Shown here: piece after piece, positions 2,067 to 36,077 of the stretch
Layout: each line of letters starts with the position of its first letter
Numbering within the stretch: position 1 is the stretch's first letter
IMG/VR virus record: IMGVR_UViG_2851971941_000001
Coordinates: 1-36,077 of that record
DNA from: a virus
Taxonomy: Duplodnaviria; Heunggongvirae; Uroviricota; Caudoviricetes
DNA length: 36,077 nucleotides
Strand: one strand, 5' to 3'
Translations under genes and position numbers: made by a program
Notes under the pieces: model-generated
The model's database searches: none
What the model was told of the DNA's origin: nothing
Seen by the model: only the letters and a program-made list of their open reading frames with translations

Positions 2067-3080
2067 TTACTCTACTGTGGACACTGTGTGGACACTCTCG
2101 GCCTCAGTACCACCTCTTAGCGGATTAAGAGAAATGGCGTCCTGAAGGTACTCTGGCGCAAAATGAGCGTAAACCATAGTTTGCTCAATCCGCGTGTGAC
2201 CTAGTATCCGTTGTAGCGTGATAATACTTCCTCCATTAATCATGAAATGAGTGGCAAAGCTGTGCCTTAGTGCATGTGTGGCTTGCCCCGTTGGCAAATC
2301 CGGTTTTATTGCTTTCATTGTTCGTCTGAAGCGAGGGTAATCAGCATCAGGGAATAAAAAACCTCGTTTGTTATCCGCGATCATTTTGGCAACAGCCTCT
2401 GAGATCGGGACGGTGCGTGGTTTGTTTGTTTTCGTTTTAACAAACGTGACGCGGTTATGGATGATATTTTCTGCTTTCAAACGAGCTGCTTCTCCCCAAC
2501 GTGCTCCTGTACTCAGGCAAAGAATCGCAATCTTTTTATTGTCGCCGTCAAGTGCTGCAAGCAGTAAGGCAATTTCTTCCTGTGTGAGATAGCCTGTTTC
2601 TGGTTTTTCCTCCTTAAGCCTCTTTGTCCCTCTGATAGGGTGCTCACCAAAGAATAACTCCGCTTCAATCAGGGCTGTAAACATGCCGCTAATACATGTT
2701 AAATCACGATTGATACTCGAAGGTTTAATACCCTGACTTCTTCGGGTGGCGCAGTACTGGCTGATAAGGGATTTCGTGATTTGAAATGCGCATGGGTCAT
2801 TCGTTATTTTTGTGAAGATTTCAATTTTTCCAAGATTAGATTTCCCATGCTCTTCGTGTTTACCCTTTAAATCCCACCAGATCTGTGTCAGTTCCGACAG
2901 ACGTCGTTTGTCTGTTGGTTTTGATAGCCATTCTTTATTGTGGTGGTTGTACAACGTGTATTTTTCGAAAGCGACAGCTTCGCTTTTCTTATCAAACTTC
3001 CTACGGATGCGTTTTCCGTTACGTCCAGTAGGGCGGATGTCCACTTCATATCGACCATCATCGAGTTTTTTGATTGCCAT
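2067..3080 (-). CDS. int: Tyrosine site-specific integrase, P2 Int-like (337 aa)
   Basis: 337 aa, the same length as P2 Int; C-terminal catalytic signatures HALRHSFATHF and LGHTRIEQTMVYAHF (R/H-x-x-R and catalytic Tyr); adjacent to att core. Confidence 0.9.
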   Translation of the reverse strand: MAIKKLDDGRYEVDIRPTGRNGKRIRRKFDKKSEAVAFEKYTLYNHHNKEWLSKPTDKRRLSELTQIWWDLKGKHEEHGKSNLGKIEIFTKITNDPCAFQITKSLISQYCATRRSQGIKPSSINRDLTCISGMFTALIEAELFFGEHPIRGTKRLKEEKPETGYLTQEEIALLLAALDGDNKKIAILCLSTGARWGEAARLKAENIIHNRVTFVKTKTNKPRTVPISEAVAKMIADNKRGFLFPDADYPRFRRTMKAIKPDLPTGQATHALRHSFATHFMINGGSIITLQRILGHTRIEQTMVYAHFAPEYLQDAISLNPLRGGTEAESVHTVSTVE

Positions 3081-3902: not shown

Positions 3903-4073
3903 ATGAATGAGCCTCGTTGTATTGCTCAGTTATTGCGTAACGAAAGCCCCAGGGCGATTGACTTCACCATCACCCACGGTAAGGGGCGTAAGGGAATCAT
4001 TATCCGCACCAAAAAACAGAGTCCGTTAAAAAAGGCTCTGACCTTTCTGAAAAGCCGGAGGGTCTGGAAATGA
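3903..4073 (+). CDS. Small early protein, P2 orf78-like
   Basis: In-frame ATG at 3903 with AAGGAG ribosome-binding site 8 bp upstream; 56 aa; position between cox and B. Confidence 0.55.
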   Translation: MNEPRCIAQLLRNESPRAIDFTITHGKGRKGIIIRTKKQSPLKKALTFLKSRRVWK

Positions 4074-4570
4074 CAGTGATGACGCTTAATCTCGTTGAAA
4101 AACAGCCAGCAGCTATGCGCCGGATAATTGGTAAGCATCTGGCCGTCCCTCGCTGGCAGGAGACATGCGATTATTATAATCAGATGATGGAACGCGAACG
4201 GCTAACGGTTTGCTTCCATGCGCAGTTAAAACAGCGTCACGCAACGATGCGTTTTGAAGAAATGAACGACGTCGAACGTGAACGGCTGGTTTGCGCAATT
4301 GATGAATTGCGTGGGGCATTCTCAAAACGCCGTCAGGTTGGCGCAAGTGAGTATGCATATATTAGTTTTTTAACAGTCAGTCAGCGTCGTACTTTATTTA
4401 TGCATGCCGGATTGACTGAAAAAGAATTCAACCAGCCATACTGGCGAATTAATGAAGAATCATGTTACTGGCGTGATGCTTTATTCCGTGCATTACGTGA
4501 ATTGTTCAGCCTGTTTGAGTATGCACCGACAATTCTGACGTCGGTAAAACCAGAGCAATATCTGCATTAA
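4070..4570 (+). CDS. B: Replication protein B-like (166 aa)
   Basis: 166 aa, the same length as P2 gpB; GGAG ribosome-binding site upstream; ATGA start/stop overlap with upstream ORF; synteny. Confidence 0.8.
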   Translation: MTVMTLNLVEKQPAAMRRIIGKHLAVPRWQETCDYYNQMMERERLTVCFHAQLKQRHATMRFEEMNDVERERLVCAIDELRGAFSKRRQVGASEYAYISFLTVSQRRTLFMHAGLTEKEFNQPYWRINEESCYWRDALFRALRELFSLFEYAPTILTSVKPEQYLH

Positions 4571-5384: not shown

Positions 5385-5656
5385 GTATTCGTATTGAAAT
5401 TGGCGAACGTTATGTCGTTACCAGTGACAGCTTTCAGTTTATTCTCCACGAGAAAAAGAGAGCGGAAAGCGGTAAAAACGCCGGTCAGGAATGGCTGGCG
5501 GTGGTTGGTTATTACCCGAAATTAAGCCAGCTCGTTTCCGGCCTGATGCATCACGATATTCTGACCGGAAGCGCAAAGTCTTTTGCTGATTTAAACGCGC
5601 AGGTTGAGCAACTCAGCAGGCGTTGTTCAGAGGCTTTTGGCTCATATGGCCGTTAA
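5381..5656 (+). CDS. Small early protein, P2 orf83-like
   Basis: 91 aa; ATGA overlap with upstream gene; synteny. Confidence 0.5.
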   Translation: MSIRIEIGERYVVTSDSFQFILHEKKRAESGKNAGQEWLAVVGYYPKLSQLVSGLMHHDILTGSAKSFADLNAQVEQLSRRCSEAFGSYGR

Positions 5657-7919
5657 AGCCTCCGGGCGTTTTGTCCCTCCGTCAGCATTTGCCGCAGGCA
5701 CCGGTAAGATGTTTACCGGTGCTTATGCATGGAACGCGCCACGCGAGGCTGTCGGGCGCGAAAGACCTCTTACACGTGATGAGATGCGTCAGGTGCAAGG
5801 TGTTTTATCCACGATTAACCGCCTGCCTTACTTTTTGCGCTCGCTGTTTACTTCACGCTATGACTACATCAGGCGCAATAAAAGCCCGGTGCACGGGTTT
5901 TATTTCCTCACATCCACTTTTCAGCGTCGTTTATGGCCGCGCATTGAGCGCGTGAATCAGCGCCATGAAATGAACACCGATGCGTCGTTGCTGTTTCTGG
6001 CAGAGCGCGACCAGTATGCGCGCCTGCCGGGAATGAATGACAAGGAGCTGAAAAAGTTTGCTGCCCGTATCTCATCGCAGCTTTTCATGATGTATGAGGA
6101 ACTCTGCGATGCCTGGGTGGATGCGCATGGCGAGAAAGAATCGCTGTTTACGGATGAGGCGCAGGCTCACCTCTATGGTCATGTTGCTGGCGCTGCACGT
6201 GCTTTCAATATTTCCCCTCTCTACTGGAAAAAATACCGTAAAGGACAGATGACCACGAGGCAGGCATATTCTGCCATTGCCCGTCTGTTTAACGATGAGT
6301 GGTGGACTCATCAGCTTAAAGGCCAGCGTATGCGCTGGCATGAGGCGTTACTGATAGCTGTCGGGGAGGTCAATAAAGACCGTTCTCCTTATGCCAGTAA
6401 ACATGCCATTCGGGATGTGCGTGCACGCCGCCAGGCAAATCTGGAATTTCTTAAATCGTGTGACCTTGAAAACAGGGAAACCGGCGAGCGCATCGACCTT
6501 ATCAGTAAGGTGATGGGCAGTATTTCTAATCCTGAAATTCGCCGGATGGAGCTGATGAACACCATCGCTGGAATTGAGCGTTACGCCGCCGCAGAGGGTG
6601 ATGTGGGGATGTTTATCACGCTGACCGCGCCGTCAAAGTATCACCCGACTCGTCAGGTCAGAAAAGGCGAAAGTAAAACCGTTCAGCTTAATCACGGCTG
6701 GAACGATGAGGCATTTAATCCAAAGGATGCGCAGCGTTATCTCTGCCGCATCTGGAGCCTGATGCGCACGGCATTCAAGGATAATGATTTACAGGTCTAC
6801 GGTTTGCGTGTCGTCGAGCCACACCACGACGGAACGCCGCACTGGCATATGATGCTTTTTTGTAATCCACGCCAGCGTAACCAGATTATCGAAATCATGC
6901 GTCGCTATGCGCTCAAAGAGGATGGTGACGAAAGAGGAGCCGCGCGAAACCGTTTTCAGGCAAAGCACCTTAACCGGGGCGGTGCTGCGGGATATATCGC
7001 GAAATACATTTCAAAAAATATCGACGGCTATGCACTGGATGGTCAGCTCGATAACGATACCGGTAAGCCGCTTAAAGATACTGCCGCGGCTGTTACCGCA
7101 TGGGCGTCAACGTGGCGCATCCCGCAATTTAAAACGGTTGGACTGCCGACAATGGGGGCTTACCGTGAACTACGCAAATTGCCTCGCGGCGTCAGTATTG
7201 CTGATGAGTTTGACGAACGCGTCGAGGCTGCTCGCGCTGCCGCAGACAGTGGTGATTTTGCGTTGTATATCAGCGCGCAGGGTGGGGCAAATGTCCCGCG
7301 CGATTGTCAGACTGTCAGGGTTGCCCGTAGCCCGTCGGATGACGTTAACGAGTACGAGGAAGAAGTCGAGAGAGTGGTCGGCATTTACGCGCCGCATCTC
7401 GGCGCGCGTCATATTCATATCACCAGAACGACGGACTGGCGCATTGTGCCGAAAGTTCCGGTCGTTGAGCCTTTGACTTTAAAAAGCGGCATCGCCGCGC
7501 CTCGGAGTCCTGTCAATAACTGTGGAAAGGTCACCGGTGGTGATACTTCGTTACCGGCTCCCACACCTTCTGAGCACGCCGCAGCAGTGCTTAATCTGGT
7601 TGATGACGGTGTTATCGAATGGAATGACCCGGAGGTCGTGAGGGCGCTCAGAGGTGCATTAAAACACGGACTGAGAACACCAAATCGTCAGCAAAGAAAC
7701 GGAAGCCCGTTAAAACCGCATGAAATAGCGCCATCAGCCAGGCTGACCCGGTCGGAACGATTGCAAATTACCCGTATCCGTGTAGACCTTGCTCAGAACG
7801 GTATCAGGCCGCAGCGATGGGAGCTTGAGGCGCTGGCGCGTGGTGCAATTGTGAACTATGGCGCAAAAGAATTTCATTACCATGTTCAGAAGGCGTGGGA
7901 AGCATTTTCGAGGTGGTAA
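5646..7919 (+). CDS. A: Rolling-circle replication initiator/endonuclease, P2 gpA-like
   Basis: ORF 5604..7919 (771 aa); probable start at internal Met MAVKASGRF; contains HxH-type motif PHWHMMLF and a two-tyrosine active-site motif YIAKYISK typical of rolling-circle Rep proteins; size close to P2 A. Confidence 0.85.
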   Translation: MAVKASGRFVPPSAFAAGTGKMFTGAYAWNAPREAVGRERPLTRDEMRQVQGVLSTINRLPYFLRSLFTSRYDYIRRNKSPVHGFYFLTSTFQRRLWPRIERVNQRHEMNTDASLLFLAERDQYARLPGMNDKELKKFAARISSQLFMMYEELCDAWVDAHGEKESLFTDEAQAHLYGHVAGAARAFNISPLYWKKYRKGQMTTRQAYSAIARLFNDEWWTHQLKGQRMRWHEALLIAVGEVNKDRSPYASKHAIRDVRARRQANLEFLKSCDLENRETGERIDLISKVMGSISNPEIRRMELMNTIAGIERYAAAEGDVGMFITLTAPSKYHPTRQVRKGESKTVQLNHGWNDEAFNPKDAQRYLCRIWSLMRTAFKDNDLQVYGLRVVEPHHDGTPHWHMMLFCNPRQRNQIIEIMRRYALKEDGDERGAARNRFQAKHLNRGGAAGYIAKYISKNIDGYALDGQLDNDTGKPLKDTAAAVTAWASTWRIPQFKTVGLPTMGAYRELRKLPRGVSIADEFDERVEAARAAADSGDFALYISAQGGANVPRDCQTVRVARSPSDDVNEYEEEVERVVGIYAPHLGARHIHITRTTDWRIVPKVPVVEPLTLKSGIAAPRSPVNNCGKVTGGDTSLPAPTPSEHAAAVLNLVDDGVIEWNDPEVVRALRGALKHGLRTPNRQQRNGSPLKPHEIAPSARLTRSERLQITRIRVDLAQNGIRPQRWELEALARGAIVNYGAKEFHYHVQKAWEAFSRW

Positions 7920-8029
7920 TCTAAATATGAAAAATCTGCACACCGAAACACTCTTGTAGGTTGATAATTTGCAAACTAGGTGGATTTACTCTTTGATGTG
8001 TAAGAAGTTATACTACAAAAAATTGATTT

Positions 8030-8950
8030 ATGGGCTTGGCGATGTATAACGATCCTTATAGTGACCCAAAAGCGTGGGAATCATATTTCAAAAATATTGT
8101 TTGGCTACATTATAAGCCTGCTAACTGTTGTGACTTGCCAGATGAGCATGGAGGCGACTTTGGGCTGGAGTGTTACACTCTGAGTGGTCATGTTTTTCAG
8201 TGTTACTTGCCTGAGCAGTCGAGTGATATTGATAAGCTTTATAAAGCGCAACAAAAAAAGATTTATACTGATATAAAAAAGTTTTCTCAGGATAACATTA
8301 AAGAATTAGAGGAGCTTTTTGGCACATTAAAAATTAGCCGCTGGATATTAGCTACACCATATAATAAATCGGCGAAATTAAGTCAATATTGCACAAAAAA
8401 ATCATTAAAAGTAAGAGAGTTAGGGATTTCTTACGTTGCTGATGATTTTCAAATAGTAGTGCAAACAGATCGAAATTATATAGAAGAAGCGTTCTTTCTT
8501 CGCAAAAATAACTATCAATTAAGCTTTAATATAAATGATGCGACGGCTGAGAATGCTGCTAACTTTATTAGTGAAAATACATCTTTTTTAGATAAGCTAA
8601 ATTTAAAATTACCTAAGATAAATGATGATGTATCTAGGCAGGGTTTATATAGAGAGTTTTTAATACAAAAATATCTTGATTATCAAAACTTGCTGGATGC
8701 TTTGAAGAGAGACTGGGTTGATATCTATGAAATTATCTATAACTGTGTTCAACATAGAGAACGTAATTTGGTAGGTCTCTTTCTTCTTACTTCATCAGAT
8801 GCGAAACCATCAGATATAATGAAAGATGAAATCGCTTTGTTAAAGAAATGTATTGAAGAGGAAGTTAGTACGCTTAAACAGGCTGACTTGGATAAGATAA
8901 CATGGGGAGTTATTTCTGATTGGCTTATAAGATGCCCTTTAGATTTTTAG
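8030..8950 (+). CDS. Cargo operon gene 1: 306-aa protein of unknown function, candidate effector of a defence system
   Basis: AT-rich ORF; first gene of a three-gene unit with 1-bp intergenic gaps; N-terminal Cys/His/acidic cluster CCDLPDEHGGDFGLECY...GHVFQCY; no confident family assignment. Confidence 0.6.
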   Translation: MGLAMYNDPYSDPKAWESYFKNIVWLHYKPANCCDLPDEHGGDFGLECYTLSGHVFQCYLPEQSSDIDKLYKAQQKKIYTDIKKFSQDNIKELEELFGTLKISRWILATPYNKSAKLSQYCTKKSLKVRELGISYVADDFQIVVQTDRNYIEEAFFLRKNNYQLSFNINDATAENAANFISENTSFLDKLNLKLPKINDDVSRQGLYREFLIQKYLDYQNLLDALKRDWVDIYEIIYNCVQHRERNLVGLFLLTSSDAKPSDIMKDEIALLKKCIEEEVSTLKQADLDKITWGVISDWLIRCPLDF

Positions 8951-8951
8951 A

Positions 8952-9428
8952 ATGGAAAAGCAAATGCATATAACGATAGATGAAATAATAGGAAGGCCGT
9001 TTACGTTTAATAAACGACCTGAACATTTGCCATGTGATATGAGACCATTGTGGCGTTGCAGTTTGTTGCTGATAATATTCCTTGTCACAGGGAGAGCTGG
9101 TTGCTGTTCTTTAAAAAAACTTCATTTAATTAATTGGATGTTAAAGTCAGAGAATAATGAAGCAATGTTTGAATTCTGGCTTTTAAACAAAGAAGGTTTA
9201 AAGCCTGAAGTAAGATTGGATCCAACTTTAGATAGAGCAATACAGCTATTATTAGCAGAGGATTTTATTTTGAGAAATGAACGAGCGTTCAAAATAAATG
9301 AAAAGGGGCTTAAGGTCGCTGAGAAATTGCTTTCTCTTGATGTGTTCAAAGAAGAAAGGTTGGTGCTAAATAAACATAAGGCTGGACTGTCCGAAACTAA
9401 CATTAATAAAATATTTCAGGTGGGTTAA
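8952..9428 (+). CDS. Cargo operon gene 2: 158-aa protein of unknown function
   Basis: ATG 1 nt after upstream stop and stop 1 nt before downstream ATG (translational coupling); AT-rich; no recognisable motif. Confidence 0.55.
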   Translation: MEKQMHITIDEIIGRPFTFNKRPEHLPCDMRPLWRCSLLLIIFLVTGRAGCCSLKKLHLINWMLKSENNEAMFEFWLLNKEGLKPEVRLDPTLDRAIQLLLAEDFILRNERAFKINEKGLKVAEKLLSLDVFKEERLVLNKHKAGLSETNINKIFQVG

Positions 9429-9429
9429 T

Positions 9430-11451
9430 ATGTCGTTGGAAATTATTTCATTGGAGTTAGTAGCAAATACTTCGGATGGGCGTTATGGTGTTAGTATACC
9501 TTTTTCAAATGGCTTGTTTTTATTAAGAGTTGAGAATTCTCATGGTAAATCAACTTGCATGAATGGGATTGCATATGCACTTGGGATGGAAAAGGCATTA
9601 GGTGTCGGTTCTGGAAAAATCCCATTCCCTCCATCTTTGACTAGAGCACTAACGACAAAAGATAATGTTGAAGTTAGTGTAATATCATCTTATGTTTTGC
9701 TAAAAATAAAGAATCATAAGGGAATAGAAGCATCTTTGAAAAGGAATATTATCGGTCACGATAATAATAATGTTATTTATATAGATGAGAAGAATAATGT
9801 AAAAAGTAAGAGTGGTACTTATTTTTTACATAGAGAGGGCGATACTGAAAGGGAACGTGGTTTCTATAAGTGGTTAGCTGATTTTATAGGTTGGAGTTTG
9901 CCAAATGTTCCAAACCATAATGGGAAGGACACTATTCTTTATCCATCCGTACTTTTCCCTGCATGGTATGTTGAGCAAAAAAAAGGATGGTCGTCAATTA
10001 TGGCGACTGTACCAACACAATTTGGAATTAAAGAGCCAAAGAAAAGAGCTCTAGAATTTTTAATGTCTCTTGATGTTAATGATAATATTTTATTGCGTAG
10101 TTCGTTAAGAAATGAACTTGATATTATTTATCATGATTGGAAGTTAATTAAACACAATGCAGAAGTTATTGCTTCTAAATTGTCGTCAGTTGTCACAGGG
10201 ATTCCTGAACAACCAGTGGCAAAATTTGATCATTATAAGATAGATTTGATTATTAAAAATGGTAGTGTCGTTAGATCTATTGTTGATGTTCGTAATGAAC
10301 TGGAAAAAGAGTTGCAAGAAATTAAGTTTGACACTCTTGGTGAGCAAGAAGAACAAACTTTACAATTATCAGTGGTTAAGTTATTAGGTCAAAAAAATGA
10401 TGAAATTAACTCTCTGGAATTAAAGATTAAAGAGATTTGTGAGCATAGAAGTTATATTCAATATCAAATTCAGGCGACCAAAAACAGATTGTATAATCTG
10501 TTGGAAGATAAAAGGAAGTATGAAGATTTAAAGAAAATATCATCTTCGGATGCGTATAAGTCAACAGATTTAATGTCAAATATTTGTCCGACTTGTGGTG
10601 CAAGTTATAATGATAATTTGCTAAGTTTTTCATCGCAAGAAAATCTGATGACATATGAAGATAGTTTGAACTTTATTAAAGAGCAAGTAAAAGCATTTGA
10701 GTTTGTTCTGTCGGATAGTGAAAAGCAATTAAAGCTTAAAGATGTTGAGAGGAGTGATTTAGAGGGGGAAATAGCCAAGATTAGAGTTGATATTAATGCA
10801 TTAAGGGAGTCAAAATATCCCTCAATGGTTGTTCAGGAGGAGTTTCTGAGACGTAAAATAAACATTGAGAATAAAATTAATGCCATTAACGATGGCATTA
10901 AAAGTATATTGGACATTAGACTGGAGTTGGATTCATTACACCGTAGATATAAAAAGCTTATCGCGAAAAGAAAAGGATTGCCAGATAATTTCTTGTCGCG
11001 TAATGATGCCGATAAGTTAAAATTTCTTAATAAAGAAGTCGTTGCACGATTAGAAAAATATAATTTTACAAGTTTTGATTCTAAACTTGTGTCAATATCA
11101 GAAGATAATTACTTACCTACTAGGGAAGGATATGATATAGGTTTTGACACATCAGCTAGTGATGGAATAAGAATCATTTGGGGTTATTTAATAAGTTTAT
11201 TTGTTGTTGGTTCTAAATTTCAAACAAATCACCCTGGATTGATTGTGTTTGATGAGCCTCGTCAACAAGAAGCAAATAAAGTAAGTTTTGCCGAGTTACT
11301 TAAAGATGCTGCAGAAACAACAAAAGGACAAGGGCAGATCATTTTTGCTACATCAGAAGATGAAAATGTCTTAAAAGAGGCATTAGAAGGGTATGACTAT
11401 ACAATGATATCCTTTGATAAGAACAATGGGAAATTGTTGAGGAAATTATAA
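9430..11451 (+). CDS. Cargo operon gene 3: SMC/Rad50-like ABC ATPase with coiled-coil and central CxxC hook-like motif (673 aa)
   Basis: Walker A-like ENSHGKST (nt 9544..9555 encode GKST); Q-loop-like YVEQKKG near residue 183; long E/K/L-rich heptad-like region about residues 290-540 with CPTC at residues 386-389 (nt 10585..10596); Walker B LIVFDEP (DE at nt 11251..11256) then IIFATSED; no TOPRIM or nuclease domain after the ATPase. Confidence 0.75.
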   Translation: MSLEIISLELVANTSDGRYGVSIPFSNGLFLLRVENSHGKSTCMNGIAYALGMEKALGVGSGKIPFPPSLTRALTTKDNVEVSVISSYVLLKIKNHKGIEASLKRNIIGHDNNNVIYIDEKNNVKSKSGTYFLHREGDTERERGFYKWLADFIGWSLPNVPNHNGKDTILYPSVLFPAWYVEQKKGWSSIMATVPTQFGIKEPKKRALEFLMSLDVNDNILLRSSLRNELDIIYHDWKLIKHNAEVIASKLSSVVTGIPEQPVAKFDHYKIDLIIKNGSVVRSIVDVRNELEKELQEIKFDTLGEQEEQTLQLSVVKLLGQKNDEINSLELKIKEICEHRSYIQYQIQATKNRLYNLLEDKRKYEDLKKISSSDAYKSTDLMSNICPTCGASYNDNLLSFSSQENLMTYEDSLNFIKEQVKAFEFVLSDSEKQLKLKDVERSDLEGEIAKIRVDINALRESKYPSMVVQEEFLRRKINIENKINAINDGIKSILDIRLELDSLHRRYKKLIAKRKGLPDNFLSRNDADKLKFLNKEVVARLEKYNFTSFDSKLVSISEDNYLPTREGYDIGFDTSASDGIRIIWGYLISLFVVGSKFQTNHPGLIVFDEPRQQEANKVSFAELLKDAAETTKGQGQIIFATSEDENVLKEALEGYDYTMISFDKNNGKLLRKL

Positions 11452-11574
11452 ACTTTTATGTTGCTGCATTAGAATGCATGATTATTGTTTATCTGTTAAG
11501 AGTGCTCCGTGCCAGTGTCGGCGCGGAGAAATCATGTCATGCACCTGCATTAAAACCGACCCATGAAGCGGGCG

Positions 11575-11593
11575 GGCGAGGCGGGGAAAGCAC
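11575..11593. other. Candidate cos site: 19-nt GGCGAGGCGGGGAAAGCAC
   Basis: Exact 19-mer seen in the GC-rich non-coding stretch between the cargo operon and Q, the expected cos position; the match to the P2 cohesive-end sequence is recalled from memory, not looked up. Confidence 0.6.
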
Positions 11594-11735
11594 TGCGCGC
11601 TGGCGGTGGTGCTGATTTTATTTTTTCAGCGTCTGAGCGCGTCGTGATGGCGTTTAGATTGTTCGCCGGGGCGTTGGTGTGTCTGCGGGATGTTTTGTGC
11701 GGTGGTGAGCGTGTGAGGGCGTGATGACAGGGTGT

Positions 11736-21013: not shown

Positions 21014-21799
21014 TTATGAGTGGTTTTTATTTGATGCTTTGTATTCTAAAACCTTCTTATTGGCGTAAAGGAATTTTGCATATGACAGGAATATAAGCAG
21101 ACCTGAAATGAAATAGGTTAGGGATATTATTAATAATGTTTTTCTGTGGCTGTTATTATCTTTGATCTCCTGACTTAACCATTCGGAGTCCTCCTCGTTT
21201 AGCTGTAAGAGCTTATTGCAGGCGATTTCAGGAAGTGTGTCTTTTATAAATACGTTTTGCAGTCTCTTGCAATCGGCAAGGCTATAAGTTTTATTAAATT
21301 CAACTGCTTTATTTTTGAAGGATAAAAGAACTTTGTCACTATAAACATAGTACATCATGTTTTTATATGGTATACCTATGGCATCCCTTACTATAGCGGA
21401 TTGTTCATTGTGTATGTAACATGCGAAGATAATATAAAGAATTCCGGCCAGGACTGCACTCATTGTTTTTGTGATGCATAGCGGTTCTGTTATGTCTCCC
21501 CAGAAGCGAGTAAGGAAAAAATCCGATGTTTTTAGTTTTCCATCAATCAGCCCCTGCTGTATCATTCTCACATCTTCGATGCCTGATACATTGATTCCGT
21601 TAAGTGTTTTAAATAGTTGAATGTCGCGCCACTCGCGGTCCAGTCTTTTTAATTTTTTGTCTGAATATCCAAATTTGAAATAATGTGCAATAAGCCTCAT
21701 AAGGTTACTTTTACCAAAGCTAAAAAATGCTAATACTGCAAAGACCAAAAGATACAAAACGATTAGCTCCCACACATTAGTCACATTATAGCTGACCAT
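21014..21799 (-). CDS. Cargo gene at S-V junction: 261-aa multi-pass membrane protein of unknown function
   Basis: Strongly AT-rich, opposite strand to the flanking late operons (the position P2 uses for orf30); hydrophobic segments LIVLYLLVFAVLAFFSF, AVLAGILYIIFACYI and LLIISLTYFISGLLIFLSY. Confidence 0.6.
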   Translation of the reverse strand: MVSYNVTNVWELIVLYLLVFAVLAFFSFGKSNLMRLIAHYFKFGYSDKKLKRLDREWRDIQLFKTLNGINVSGIEDVRMIQQGLIDGKLKTSDFFLTRFWGDITEPLCITKTMSAVLAGILYIIFACYIHNEQSAIVRDAIGIPYKNMMYYVYSDKVLLSFKNKAVEFNKTYSLADCKRLQNVFIKDTLPEIACNKLLQLNEEDSEWLSQEIKDNNSHRKTLLIISLTYFISGLLIFLSYAKFLYANKKVLEYKASNKNHS

Positions 21800-34715: not shown

Positions 34716-36077
34716 TCACTTACCGTGGGGGTTACGCGTGGTTTCCCCGGAGAAATTACGCATCAGCAGCGCGTAATTTAGCTCAAGATCCTGCGGCACC
34801 GGGAGCCACACAGTATAACCATCGCCTGGTGCGACCGGCATCGCTTCACCTTTGGCGTTTTCCATATGCTCAAGGGTAAAGTTAATGTTGCCTTGCGGCG
34901 TCATCAGCTCAAGGCTGTCGCCAACGGAGAATTTATTTTTCACCGCTACCGCCGCGAGCTCCCCCTTGCGCTCACCGGTAAACTCACCAACAAACTGCTG
35001 ACGGTCAGAAACCGAATAACCGTATTCGTAGTTCTGATAATCGTCGTGGGTATGACGACGCAGGAAACCTTCGGTATAGCCACGATGCGCCAGACCTTCC
35101 AGCGTTTCCAGCAGGCTGGTATCGAACGGTTTGCCCGCAGCGGCGTCATCGATAGCTTTACGGTAAACCTGCGCGGTGCGTGCGCAATAGTAGAAAGATT
35201 TGGTACGGCCTTCGATTTTCAGCGAATGCACGCCCATTTTGGTCAGGCGTTCAACATGGGCGATGGCGCGCAGATCTTTCGAGTTCATGATGTAAGTGCC
35301 GTGCTCATCTTCAAACGCGGTCATATACTCGCCCGGACGCTGGGCTTCTTCGATCATAAACACTTTGTCGGTTGGCGCGCCGATACCCAGCGTCGGCTCA
35401 ACATTTTGCACCGGAATCGGCTCGTACTTGTGTACGATGTTGCCGACGTCATCTTCTTTCCCTTCCTGGACGTTGTACTCCCAGCGGCAGGCGTTGGTGC
35501 AGGTGCCCTGGTTCGGGTCGCGCTTGTTGATATAGCCAGAGAGCAGGCAGCGACCGGAGTAGGCCATGCACAGCGCGCCGTGAACGAAGATTTCGATCTC
35601 CATATCCGGCACCTGATTGCGGATCTCTTCAATCTCTTCCAGTGACAGTTCGCGAGAGAGGATCACGCGGGTCAGACCCATTTGCTGCCAGAATTTTACC
35701 GTCGCCCAGTTTACGGCGTTAGCCTGTACCGAGAGGTGGATTGGCATTTCCGGGAAGTGCTCACGCACCAGCATAATCAGCCCTGGATCGGACATAATCA
35801 GCGCATCCGGCCCCATTTCCACCACCGGTTTCAGGTCACGGATAAAGGTTTTCAGCTTGGCGTTGTGCGGTGCAATGTTGACCACGACATAAAACTTTTT
35901 CCCCAGCGCGTGGGCTTCATTGATGCCGAGCTGAAGATTTTCGTGGTTGAATTCGTTGTTGCGCACACGCAGGGAGTAACGCGGCTGGCCCGCATAAACA
36001 GCATCTGCGCCATAAGCGAAAGCGTAACGCATATTTTTCAGCGTTCCCGCCGGGGAAAGGAGTTCCGGTTTAAACAT
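34716..36077 (-). CDS. trhP: Peptidase U32-family protein YegQ (TrhP), complete host gene
   Basis: 453-aa ORF on minus strand starting MFKPELLSPAGTLKNMRYAFAYGADAVYAGQPRYSLR, typical of U32 family; size matches E. coli YegQ; outside the prophage repeat. Confidence 0.75.
   Translation of the reverse strand: MFKPELLSPAGTLKNMRYAFAYGADAVYAGQPRYSLRVRNNEFNHENLQLGINEAHALGKKFYVVVNIAPHNAKLKTFIRDLKPVVEMGPDALIMSDPGLIMLVREHFPEMPIHLSVQANAVNWATVKFWQQMGLTRVILSRELSLEEIEEIRNQVPDMEIEIFVHGALCMAYSGRCLLSGYINKRDPNQGTCTNACRWEYNVQEGKEDDVGNIVHKYEPIPVQNVEPTLGIGAPTDKVFMIEEAQRPGEYMTAFEDEHGTYIMNSKDLRAIAHVERLTKMGVHSLKIEGRTKSFYYCARTAQVYRKAIDDAAAGKPFDTSLLETLEGLAHRGYTEGFLRRHTHDDYQNYEYGYSVSDRQQFVGEFTGERKGELAAVAVKNKFSVGDSLELMTPQGNINFTLEHMENAKGEAMPVAPGDGYTVWLPVPQDLELNYALLMRNFSGETTRNPHGK

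Follow-up and report, generated by a model that had tools for sequence, protein, structure and literature searches.

The window analyzed here, 36,077 nucleotides corresponding to positions 1 to 36,077 of IMG/VR virus record IMGVR_UViG_2851971941_000001, contains a three-gene cassette that is a short, three-component (type II) Lamassu with the gene order lmuA-lmuC-lmuB. The LmuA protein of this cassette is likely to be its nuclease effector – a protein with a divergent PD-(D/E)xK fold, encoded by a horizontally acquired cassette on a prophage and acting by a mechanism like that of the Cap4-type systems. The system type is already known and the cassette has been catalogued before; what is new is a domain-level reading of the unannotated nuclease-like domain of LmuA. 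The three genes of the cassette are:

8030–8950, plus strand: lmuA, an open reading frame (ORF) of 306 amino acids from 8030; the probable true start is the ATG at 8042, giving 302 amino acids.
8952–9428, plus strand: lmuC, 158 amino acids; PADLOC LmuC (PDLC03871, E 2.5e-23).
9430–11451, plus strand: lmuB, an SMC/Rad50-like ABC ATPase of 673 amino acids; PADLOC LmuB (PDLC03863, E 1.1e-98).

PADLOC calls the first gene LmuA (PDLC03852, E 1.1e-29, residues 12–299), and nine further PADLOC LmuB models also match lmuB. The LmuB protein has a Walker A motif (GKS, at K40), a CxxC zinc hook (386–389) and a Walker B motif (VFDE, 606–609), along with a weak Pfam AAA_23 match, and its length of 673 amino acids places it in the class that Haudiquet et al. 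(2025) call "short" Lamassu. Three features of Lamassu membership are found here: an LmuB ATPase with intact Walker A and B motifs, a small middle LmuC, and an LmuA with an N-terminal effector and a helical C-terminal domain. The cassette is an unexceptional short Lamassu operon, recognized by PADLOC and located at a prophage hotspot that was already known. A preliminary description of the window had raised the possibility of a Lamassu-like cassette with its effector in the LmuA position, and the PADLOC calls for LmuA, LmuC and LmuB bear this out. None of Pfam, NCBIfam or PHROGs supplied a functional name for LmuA, LmuC or LmuB. Sequence searches of the PDB returned nothing for LmuA (single sequences and two profiles) or for LmuB and LmuC (single sequences), and tblastn against the INPHARED phage genomes gave no match.

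The genes are separated by 1 nt each (TAG-a-ATG and TAA-t-ATG), with the lmuC ATG at 8952 lying 1 nt past the lmuA stop codon, and they form a translationally coupled three-gene operon. A triplet of genes for proteins of ~300, ~155 and ~675 amino acids recurs beside homologs of 51%, 47% and 34–37% identity (Pseudomonas, Methylophilus and the cyanobacterium Leptolyngbya), and the distant loci keep a middle gene of 152–161 amino acids. The neighborhoods of these triplets are unrelated – one is a defense island with NERD-UvrD and YhcG-type nucleases – and therefore the three genes behave as a single self-contained mobile unit. As for the middle gene, its start in RefSeq and in Rousset et al. (2022) is an internal Met at 8964 (MHITIDE...), giving 154 amino acids. 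The table of Rousset et al. also marks this protein '1 TM in protein 2'; for its hydrophobic stretch, LLLIIFLVTG, a buried helix is likelier than a transmembrane segment.

All lmuA residue numbers given here count from the 8030 start. The ORF of 306 amino acids that had been reported on the plus strand at 8030–8950 is real, and so is the peptide quoted from it, CCDLPDEHGGDFGLECYTLSGHVFQCY, found exactly at residues 33–59. The frame is open from 8030 as had been stated, but as a start codon 8042 is favored by RefSeq, by Rousset et al. (2022) and by the lengths of the homologs. RefSeq begins the identical gene at the second ATG (8042–8950, 302 amino acids; WP_024174129.1, a "hypothetical protein" of E. 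coli O145:H28 RM12761), the table of Rousset et al. likewise begins lmuA there, and most of the 120 lmuA homologs among the matches listed are 300–302 amino acids long. Of the residues singled out earlier, D35 was labeled correctly; residue 37, however, is Pro (P37), so that the Glu given as 'E37' is E39, and residue 46 is Leu (L46), the Glu given as 'E46' being E47. One homolog, that of Enterobacter ludwigii (P0017, 67% identical), bears the Joint Genome Institute name 'inhibitor of KinA sporulation pathway (predicted exonuclease)', for which no support was found in the present analysis and which looks like a transferred mis-annotation.

An AlphaFold2 model of full-length LmuA, built on 48 homologs, was confident, with a predicted local distance difference test score (pLDDT) of 90 and a predicted template modeling score (pTM) of 0.77. 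Two domains were apparent in it:

8066–8467, plus strand: N-terminal effector domain, residues 13–146, alpha-beta-beta-beta-alpha-beta-alpha-beta, with a PD-(D/E)xK-like topology.
8480–8947, plus strand: helical C-terminal domain, residues 151–306, about seven helices (spanning residues 151–301), ending in the conserved motif DWLxRCPLDF.

A model of the N-terminal domain by itself reproduced that domain (pLDDT 93, pTM 0.88). In these predicted structures, the N-terminal domain is a restriction-endonuclease (PD-(D/E)xK) core fold, alpha-beta-beta-beta-alpha-beta. The same core topology, with acidic residues on the hairpin of strands 2 and 3, is found in FokI, N.BspD6I, CdiA-CT and the Mrr-type PD-(D/E)xK nucleases. 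Foldseek with the full-length model found LmuA chains, 9nxx_B (E 3.8e-4, probability 1.0) and 9hr5_C. The preliminary description had named a Foldseek search of a predicted structure as a check, and the best solved match in that search is itself an LmuA; its suggestion of a possible PD-(D/E)xK-like nuclease site agrees with the modeled topology of the N-terminal domain and with the Foldseek matches.

The sequence family of this domain is large. A profile of the N-terminal domain matched 614 clusters (represented at 50% identity) at E<=1e-10 and 732 at the looser threshold of E<=1e-3, and residues were counted in 147 diverse representatives of these clusters. Asp 43, Gln 57 and Lys 77 are each present in 147 of 147, and position 47 is acidic in all of them (Glu in 135, Asp in 12). 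Nearly as constant are G42, G45 and K84 (146 each), D81 (144), P37 (142) and K124 (137), while Tyr59 is found in 143 and gives way to Phe in the other four. Together, P37, G42, D43, G45, E47, Q57, Y59, K77, D81, K84 and K124 are invariant or nearly so down to ~25–30% identity. This conserved subset is far beyond chance, and in the alignments it is an acidic, Gln and Lys set rather than a Cys and His set. Two elements of the domain hold most of it:

8138–8206, plus strand: putative active-site hairpin, P37-D38...G42-D43-x-G45-x-E47...Q57-C58-Y59, marked by conservation and by the register of the Mrr-type GDxGRD...YQCK.
8258–8281, plus strand: helix after strand 3 with K77, D81 and K84 (helix 67–88 in the models), which carries the candidate relocated catalytic Lys.

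PD-(D/E)xK enzymes carry their D and (D/E)xK residues on the hairpin of strands 2 and 3, and in LmuA the pattern G-D-x-G-x-E...Q-C-Y lies on that hairpin. The putative active site is probably D43 and E47 of the hairpin, together with Q57. K77 or K84 of the next helix, the candidates by their conservation, would probably stand in for the missing Lys. The earlier remark that the sequence does not match a canonical D...(D/E)xK holds – the position of the Lys is occupied by Tyr or Phe. Of the residues that had been put forward for mutagenesis, E47 (as 'E46') is a good choice; D35 and E39 (as 'E37') are not conserved across the family, and D43, Q57 and K77 had been left out.

The Cys/His cluster from which a metal-binding site had been proposed is a different matter. 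C33, C34, H40, C48, H54 and C58 do fall within 26 residues of each other in the LmuA of the window, which is what a structural or catalytic zinc site would lead one to expect. However, no ligand set is conserved. C33, C34, E39, H40 and H54 are free to differ from one family member to another: C33 is replaced by Y, F or L in relatives, C34 by Q or V, C48 by G or A, and H54 by C, I, K or N, and H40 is Q or Y among close relatives. The only common Cys or His is C58 (118 of 147), which is otherwise A, S, M or F, and D35 is kept only among close relatives. A metal site of this kind is very improbable, and the Cys/His part of the original proposal is not supported.

The effector differs from the one carried by the solved short Lamassu systems. 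The DdmABC of Vibrio cholerae and the LmuACB of Salmonella (PDB 9nxx, 9ny1, 9hr5, 9hqx) have the gene order of the cassette, in which the effector comes first, a small middle gene second and an SMC-like ATPase with its Walker A and B motifs last, and their LmuA has an N-terminal nuclease fold and a helical C-terminal bundle, as does the LmuA of the window. In contrast to theirs, the effector domain of the window is not Cap4/DUF4297, and the zinc hook CxxC of its LmuB is lacking in the Vc-Cap4 clade. No sequence similarity was detectable between the proteins of the window and the solved LmuA, LmuB and LmuC chains. Cap4/DUF4297 (PF14130) had no match at E<=1 in LmuA or in 121 family members, which excludes a Cap4/DUF4297 effector, and a Pfam scan of these 121 diverse members gave nothing consistent. 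The preliminary description had been unable to place the protein in the Cap4-nuclease family, and the lack of a Pfam match in LmuA or its 121 relatives bears out that caution.

A second type of short Lamassu also resembles the cassette. "Lamassu-Mrr" of E. coli O150:H5 SE15 was validated by Millman et al. (2022); like the cassette, it is an E. coli short Lamassu whose LmuA has a restriction-endonuclease fold. The two LmuA proteins have in common the layout G-D-x-G-x-(D/E)...(F/Y)-Q-C: the motif of SE15 is GGAGDKGRDIVVW...WHLYQCKHY and that of a B. cereus Mrr-type LmuA is GAGDMGRDVIAF...WDNYQCKHY, and in the window it is HGGDFGLECYT...HVFQCYLP. In a local alignment by hhalign of the domains alone, the best alignment fell in the exact register of this motif, though it was not significant (E 0.069), and position 59 is in register with the Mrr-type catalytic Lys. 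One alternative is that the N-terminal domain of the window truly belongs to the Mrr-type LmuA family, having diverged very far from it and having its catalytic Lys changed to Tyr.

This relationship is possible but fairly unlikely. In a comparison by hhalign of the window family with a profile of 37 Mrr-type LmuA sequences, the match was not significant (probability 0.4–0.9%, E 0.07–0.17). The Lys of QCK is catalytic in Lamassu-Mrr, whereas the window family has Tyr or Phe there, so that D43 and Q57 are present but the defining Lys of D...QxK is absent. The C-terminal domain of Lamassu-Mrr carries PF20282 (ABC-3C C-terminal domain), found in 120 of 120 SE15-type homologs among the matches listed versus none of 121 window-family members; the Mrr-type proteins also have names at NCBI. 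One Mrr-type LmuA also carries PF04471 (Mrr_cat), which had no match in the LmuA of the window or in the 121 family members. The LmuA of the window is ~75 residues shorter, and its LmuC partner had no similarity to that of Lamassu-Mrr by BLASTP. Membership in the validated Lamassu-Mrr was rejected on the non-significant profile comparison and on the absence of SE15 from the 31 E. coli genomes that have lmuA, and the likeness is kept as a resemblance at the level of the motif.

Several results weigh against the reading of LmuA as a nuclease effector. The canonical position of the catalytic Lys has no Lys in any of the 147 representatives. Searches of Pfam, NCBIfam and the PDB (sequence and profile) gave no sequence link from LmuA to any characterized nuclease. 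The N-terminal domain alone found weaker Foldseek matches than the full-length model, the best being CdiA-CT 4zqu (E 7e-3, probability 0.93, template modeling score ~0.4), followed by Can2, EcoO109I and SduA. The peptides of the cassette appear only in the catalog table of Rousset et al. (2022) and are absent from its table of cloned systems.

The first two of these would be explained if the domain were a catalytically dead pseudo-nuclease that only binds DNA or acts as a scaffold, with toxicity arising elsewhere or protection achieved without DNA cleavage. The loss of effectors does occur among Lamassu systems, as one short clade (Clade O of Haudiquet et al. 2025) seems to have lost its effector domain. 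Still, a dead domain is improbable here, because the acidic, Gln and Lys positions (D43, E47, Q57, K77, D81 and K84) show little or no variation in the 147 representatives, down to ~25% identity. Dead domains usually lose their acidic residues. The cassette has no other candidate effector gene, and the same domain stands in the effector position of STAND/TPR proteins. The N-terminal domain of LmuA is probably an active, divergent nuclease effector.

An active enzyme of this fold could have a substrate or a chemistry other than non-specific dsDNA cleavage, for example that of a nickase, a structure-specific nuclease or an RNase. The putative active site departs from the canonical pattern, and the structural neighbors include the nickase N.BspD6I and Can2/Card1-type enzymes. 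On the other hand, the characterized nuclease effectors of Lamassu are DNases, and a chemistry based on Tyr is opposed by the four members with Phe in place of Tyr59. These four are full-length (303–309 amino acids) and keep D43, E/D47, Q57, K77, D81, K84 and K124, and all of them retain the C-terminal motif in some form, altered in P0136 (CPLRF) and P0196 (CNLDF). As the Phe59 variants are intact, the hydroxyl of the Tyr is dispensable, which speaks for a packing or stacking role, and Tyr59 is unlikely to be a covalent nucleophile. A substrate or chemistry other than non-specific dsDNA cleavage is quite improbable.

The reading of LmuA as an effector also draws on other proteins that have its N-terminal domain (P0264, P0199 and P0227). 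The domain, with the same motif, heads a STAND NTPase/TPR protein of 1083 amino acids, and it also heads proteins of ~1205 amino acids that contain iHD-CE/HD-CE domains; in one of these there is a weak match to GHKL ATPases. NLR-like bacterial immune proteins carry their effector at the N-terminal position, and the presence of the domain at that position of the STAND/TPR proteins fits an effector role. These architectures suggest that the N-terminal domain of LmuA is an effector module common to different conflict systems. A broader reading, offered tentatively and at somewhat less than an even chance, is that the domain defines an undescribed PD-(D/E)xK effector family (~730 clusters at 50% identity) in which the strand-3 catalytic Lys has given way to an aromatic residue and its role has moved to K77 or K84, and which serves as an interchangeable death effector in Lamassu, in Avs-like STAND NTPases and in iHD-CE/GHKL-type systems. 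No model in the domain databases Pfam and NCBIfam covers this family.

Beyond the identity of the system, the structure of the operon, the fold, the pattern of conservation and the mobility of the domain, which the analysis shows directly, we infer the nuclease activity of LmuA, the role of K77 or K84 and a mechanism of sequestration and oligomerization, the last by analogy with Cap4-type structures. In Cap4-type Lamassu, the C-terminal domain of LmuA is sequestered by LmuB2-LmuC; the sensing of DNA ends, along with ATP, leads to its release, and in tetramers formed through the C-terminal domain, two nuclease domains are paired for DNA cleavage. The C-terminal domains of short Lamassu are bundles of five to six helices, and that of the window, modeled with about seven, is much like them. 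By this analogy, the C-terminal bundle would keep a single LmuA inactive on the LmuB2-LmuC complex. LmuB and LmuC would sense free DNA ends or replication intermediates and release LmuA, which would then oligomerize through the C-terminal bundle, and the N-terminal nuclease domain would degrade DNA and abort the infection. K193 is invariant in the C-terminal domain and, together with DWLxRCPLDF, contributes the candidate interface residues.

Of 5,426 complete E. coli genomes, 31 carry the cassette at >=99.7% identity, in every case on the chromosome, and the carriers include O145:H28 outbreak strains. Almost all annotations of the three genes in these genomes read "hypothetical protein"; in one record, one of the genes is called a coiled-coil domain-containing protein. 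In E. coli FDAARGOS_1249 (NZ_CP069459.1), the match to 7900–11600 is in two pieces, with an IS5 family transposase annotated beneath; one copy of the locus is apparently interrupted by an insertion sequence there.

The cassette was also recorded in a survey of P2-like prophages. Entry 51 of Table S5B of Rousset et al. (2022), 'AAA_13/DUF3732' plus two proteins without domains, was counted 79 times in P2-like prophages of E. coli, in the interval from gpA to gpQ, and its three proteins match the sequences of the window. It was an unnamed candidate in that paper and was not identified as Lamassu. A set described there as "three genes with no clear domain, protects against P1" was validated, but this is a different system, as the cassette is not in the cloned-systems table. 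The literature searched gave no experimental record of defense by the cassette.

A candidate left unnamed in the 2022 survey of the P2 hotspot now has a name, and three genes that RefSeq still lists as "hypothetical protein" across 31 complete genomes of E. coli gain both a name and a testable mechanism. The effector repertoire of Lamassu would include a nuclease-fold module that is absent from the domain databases, is also used by STAND-type immune proteins, and has a putative active site that does not follow the textbook pattern D...(D/E)xK. For Lamassu overall, this is one more effector variant and no new principle.

The window as a whole is a P2-like prophage between host genes, extending from ~1.0 to 34.5 kb, with both host junctions inside the window. 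The features that frame the cassette are:

1–900: YegS-type diacylglycerol/lipid kinase gene, host flank.
2067–3080: integrase.
5604–7919: replication protein gpA (Pfam Phage_GPA, 5.9e-123).
7950–11500: low-GC cargo island of 3.5 kb, flanked by gpA and the portal gene (the P2 gpA-gpQ hotspot).
7985–8014, plus strand: promoter-like site TTTACT-18 nt-TATACT at the start of the island, upstream of lmuA; found by a consensus scan, a pattern match only.
34716–36077: U32 peptidase gene, host flank.

The island consists of the three plus-strand genes, lmuA first, and has a GC content (the fraction of G and C bases) of 0.33, compared to 0.52 in the remainder of the window. The region between gpA and gpQ is a cargo hotspot of P2-like phages (Rousset et al. 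2022). The gene after the insert, on the minus strand, is the portal gene by RefSeq annotation, and a mostly plus-strand block of ORFs fills the rest of the window, to ~34.1 kb.

Two other ORFs of the prophage were noted. In the early region, an ORF of 166 amino acids (4070–4570, plus strand) has no match in Pfam and only a weak one in PADLOC, to the PD-(D/E)XK model DruK (13.5 bits, E 0.0074); the DruK match is probably due to chance. A second low-GC island (0.38 vs ~0.57) holds an ORF of 261 amino acids on the minus strand (21014–21799), inside the forward-strand block of tail and lysis genes, with neither a Pfam nor a PADLOC match. P2-like phages carry a moron between their tail genes, and because this ORF is located at the moron position, it may be further cargo.
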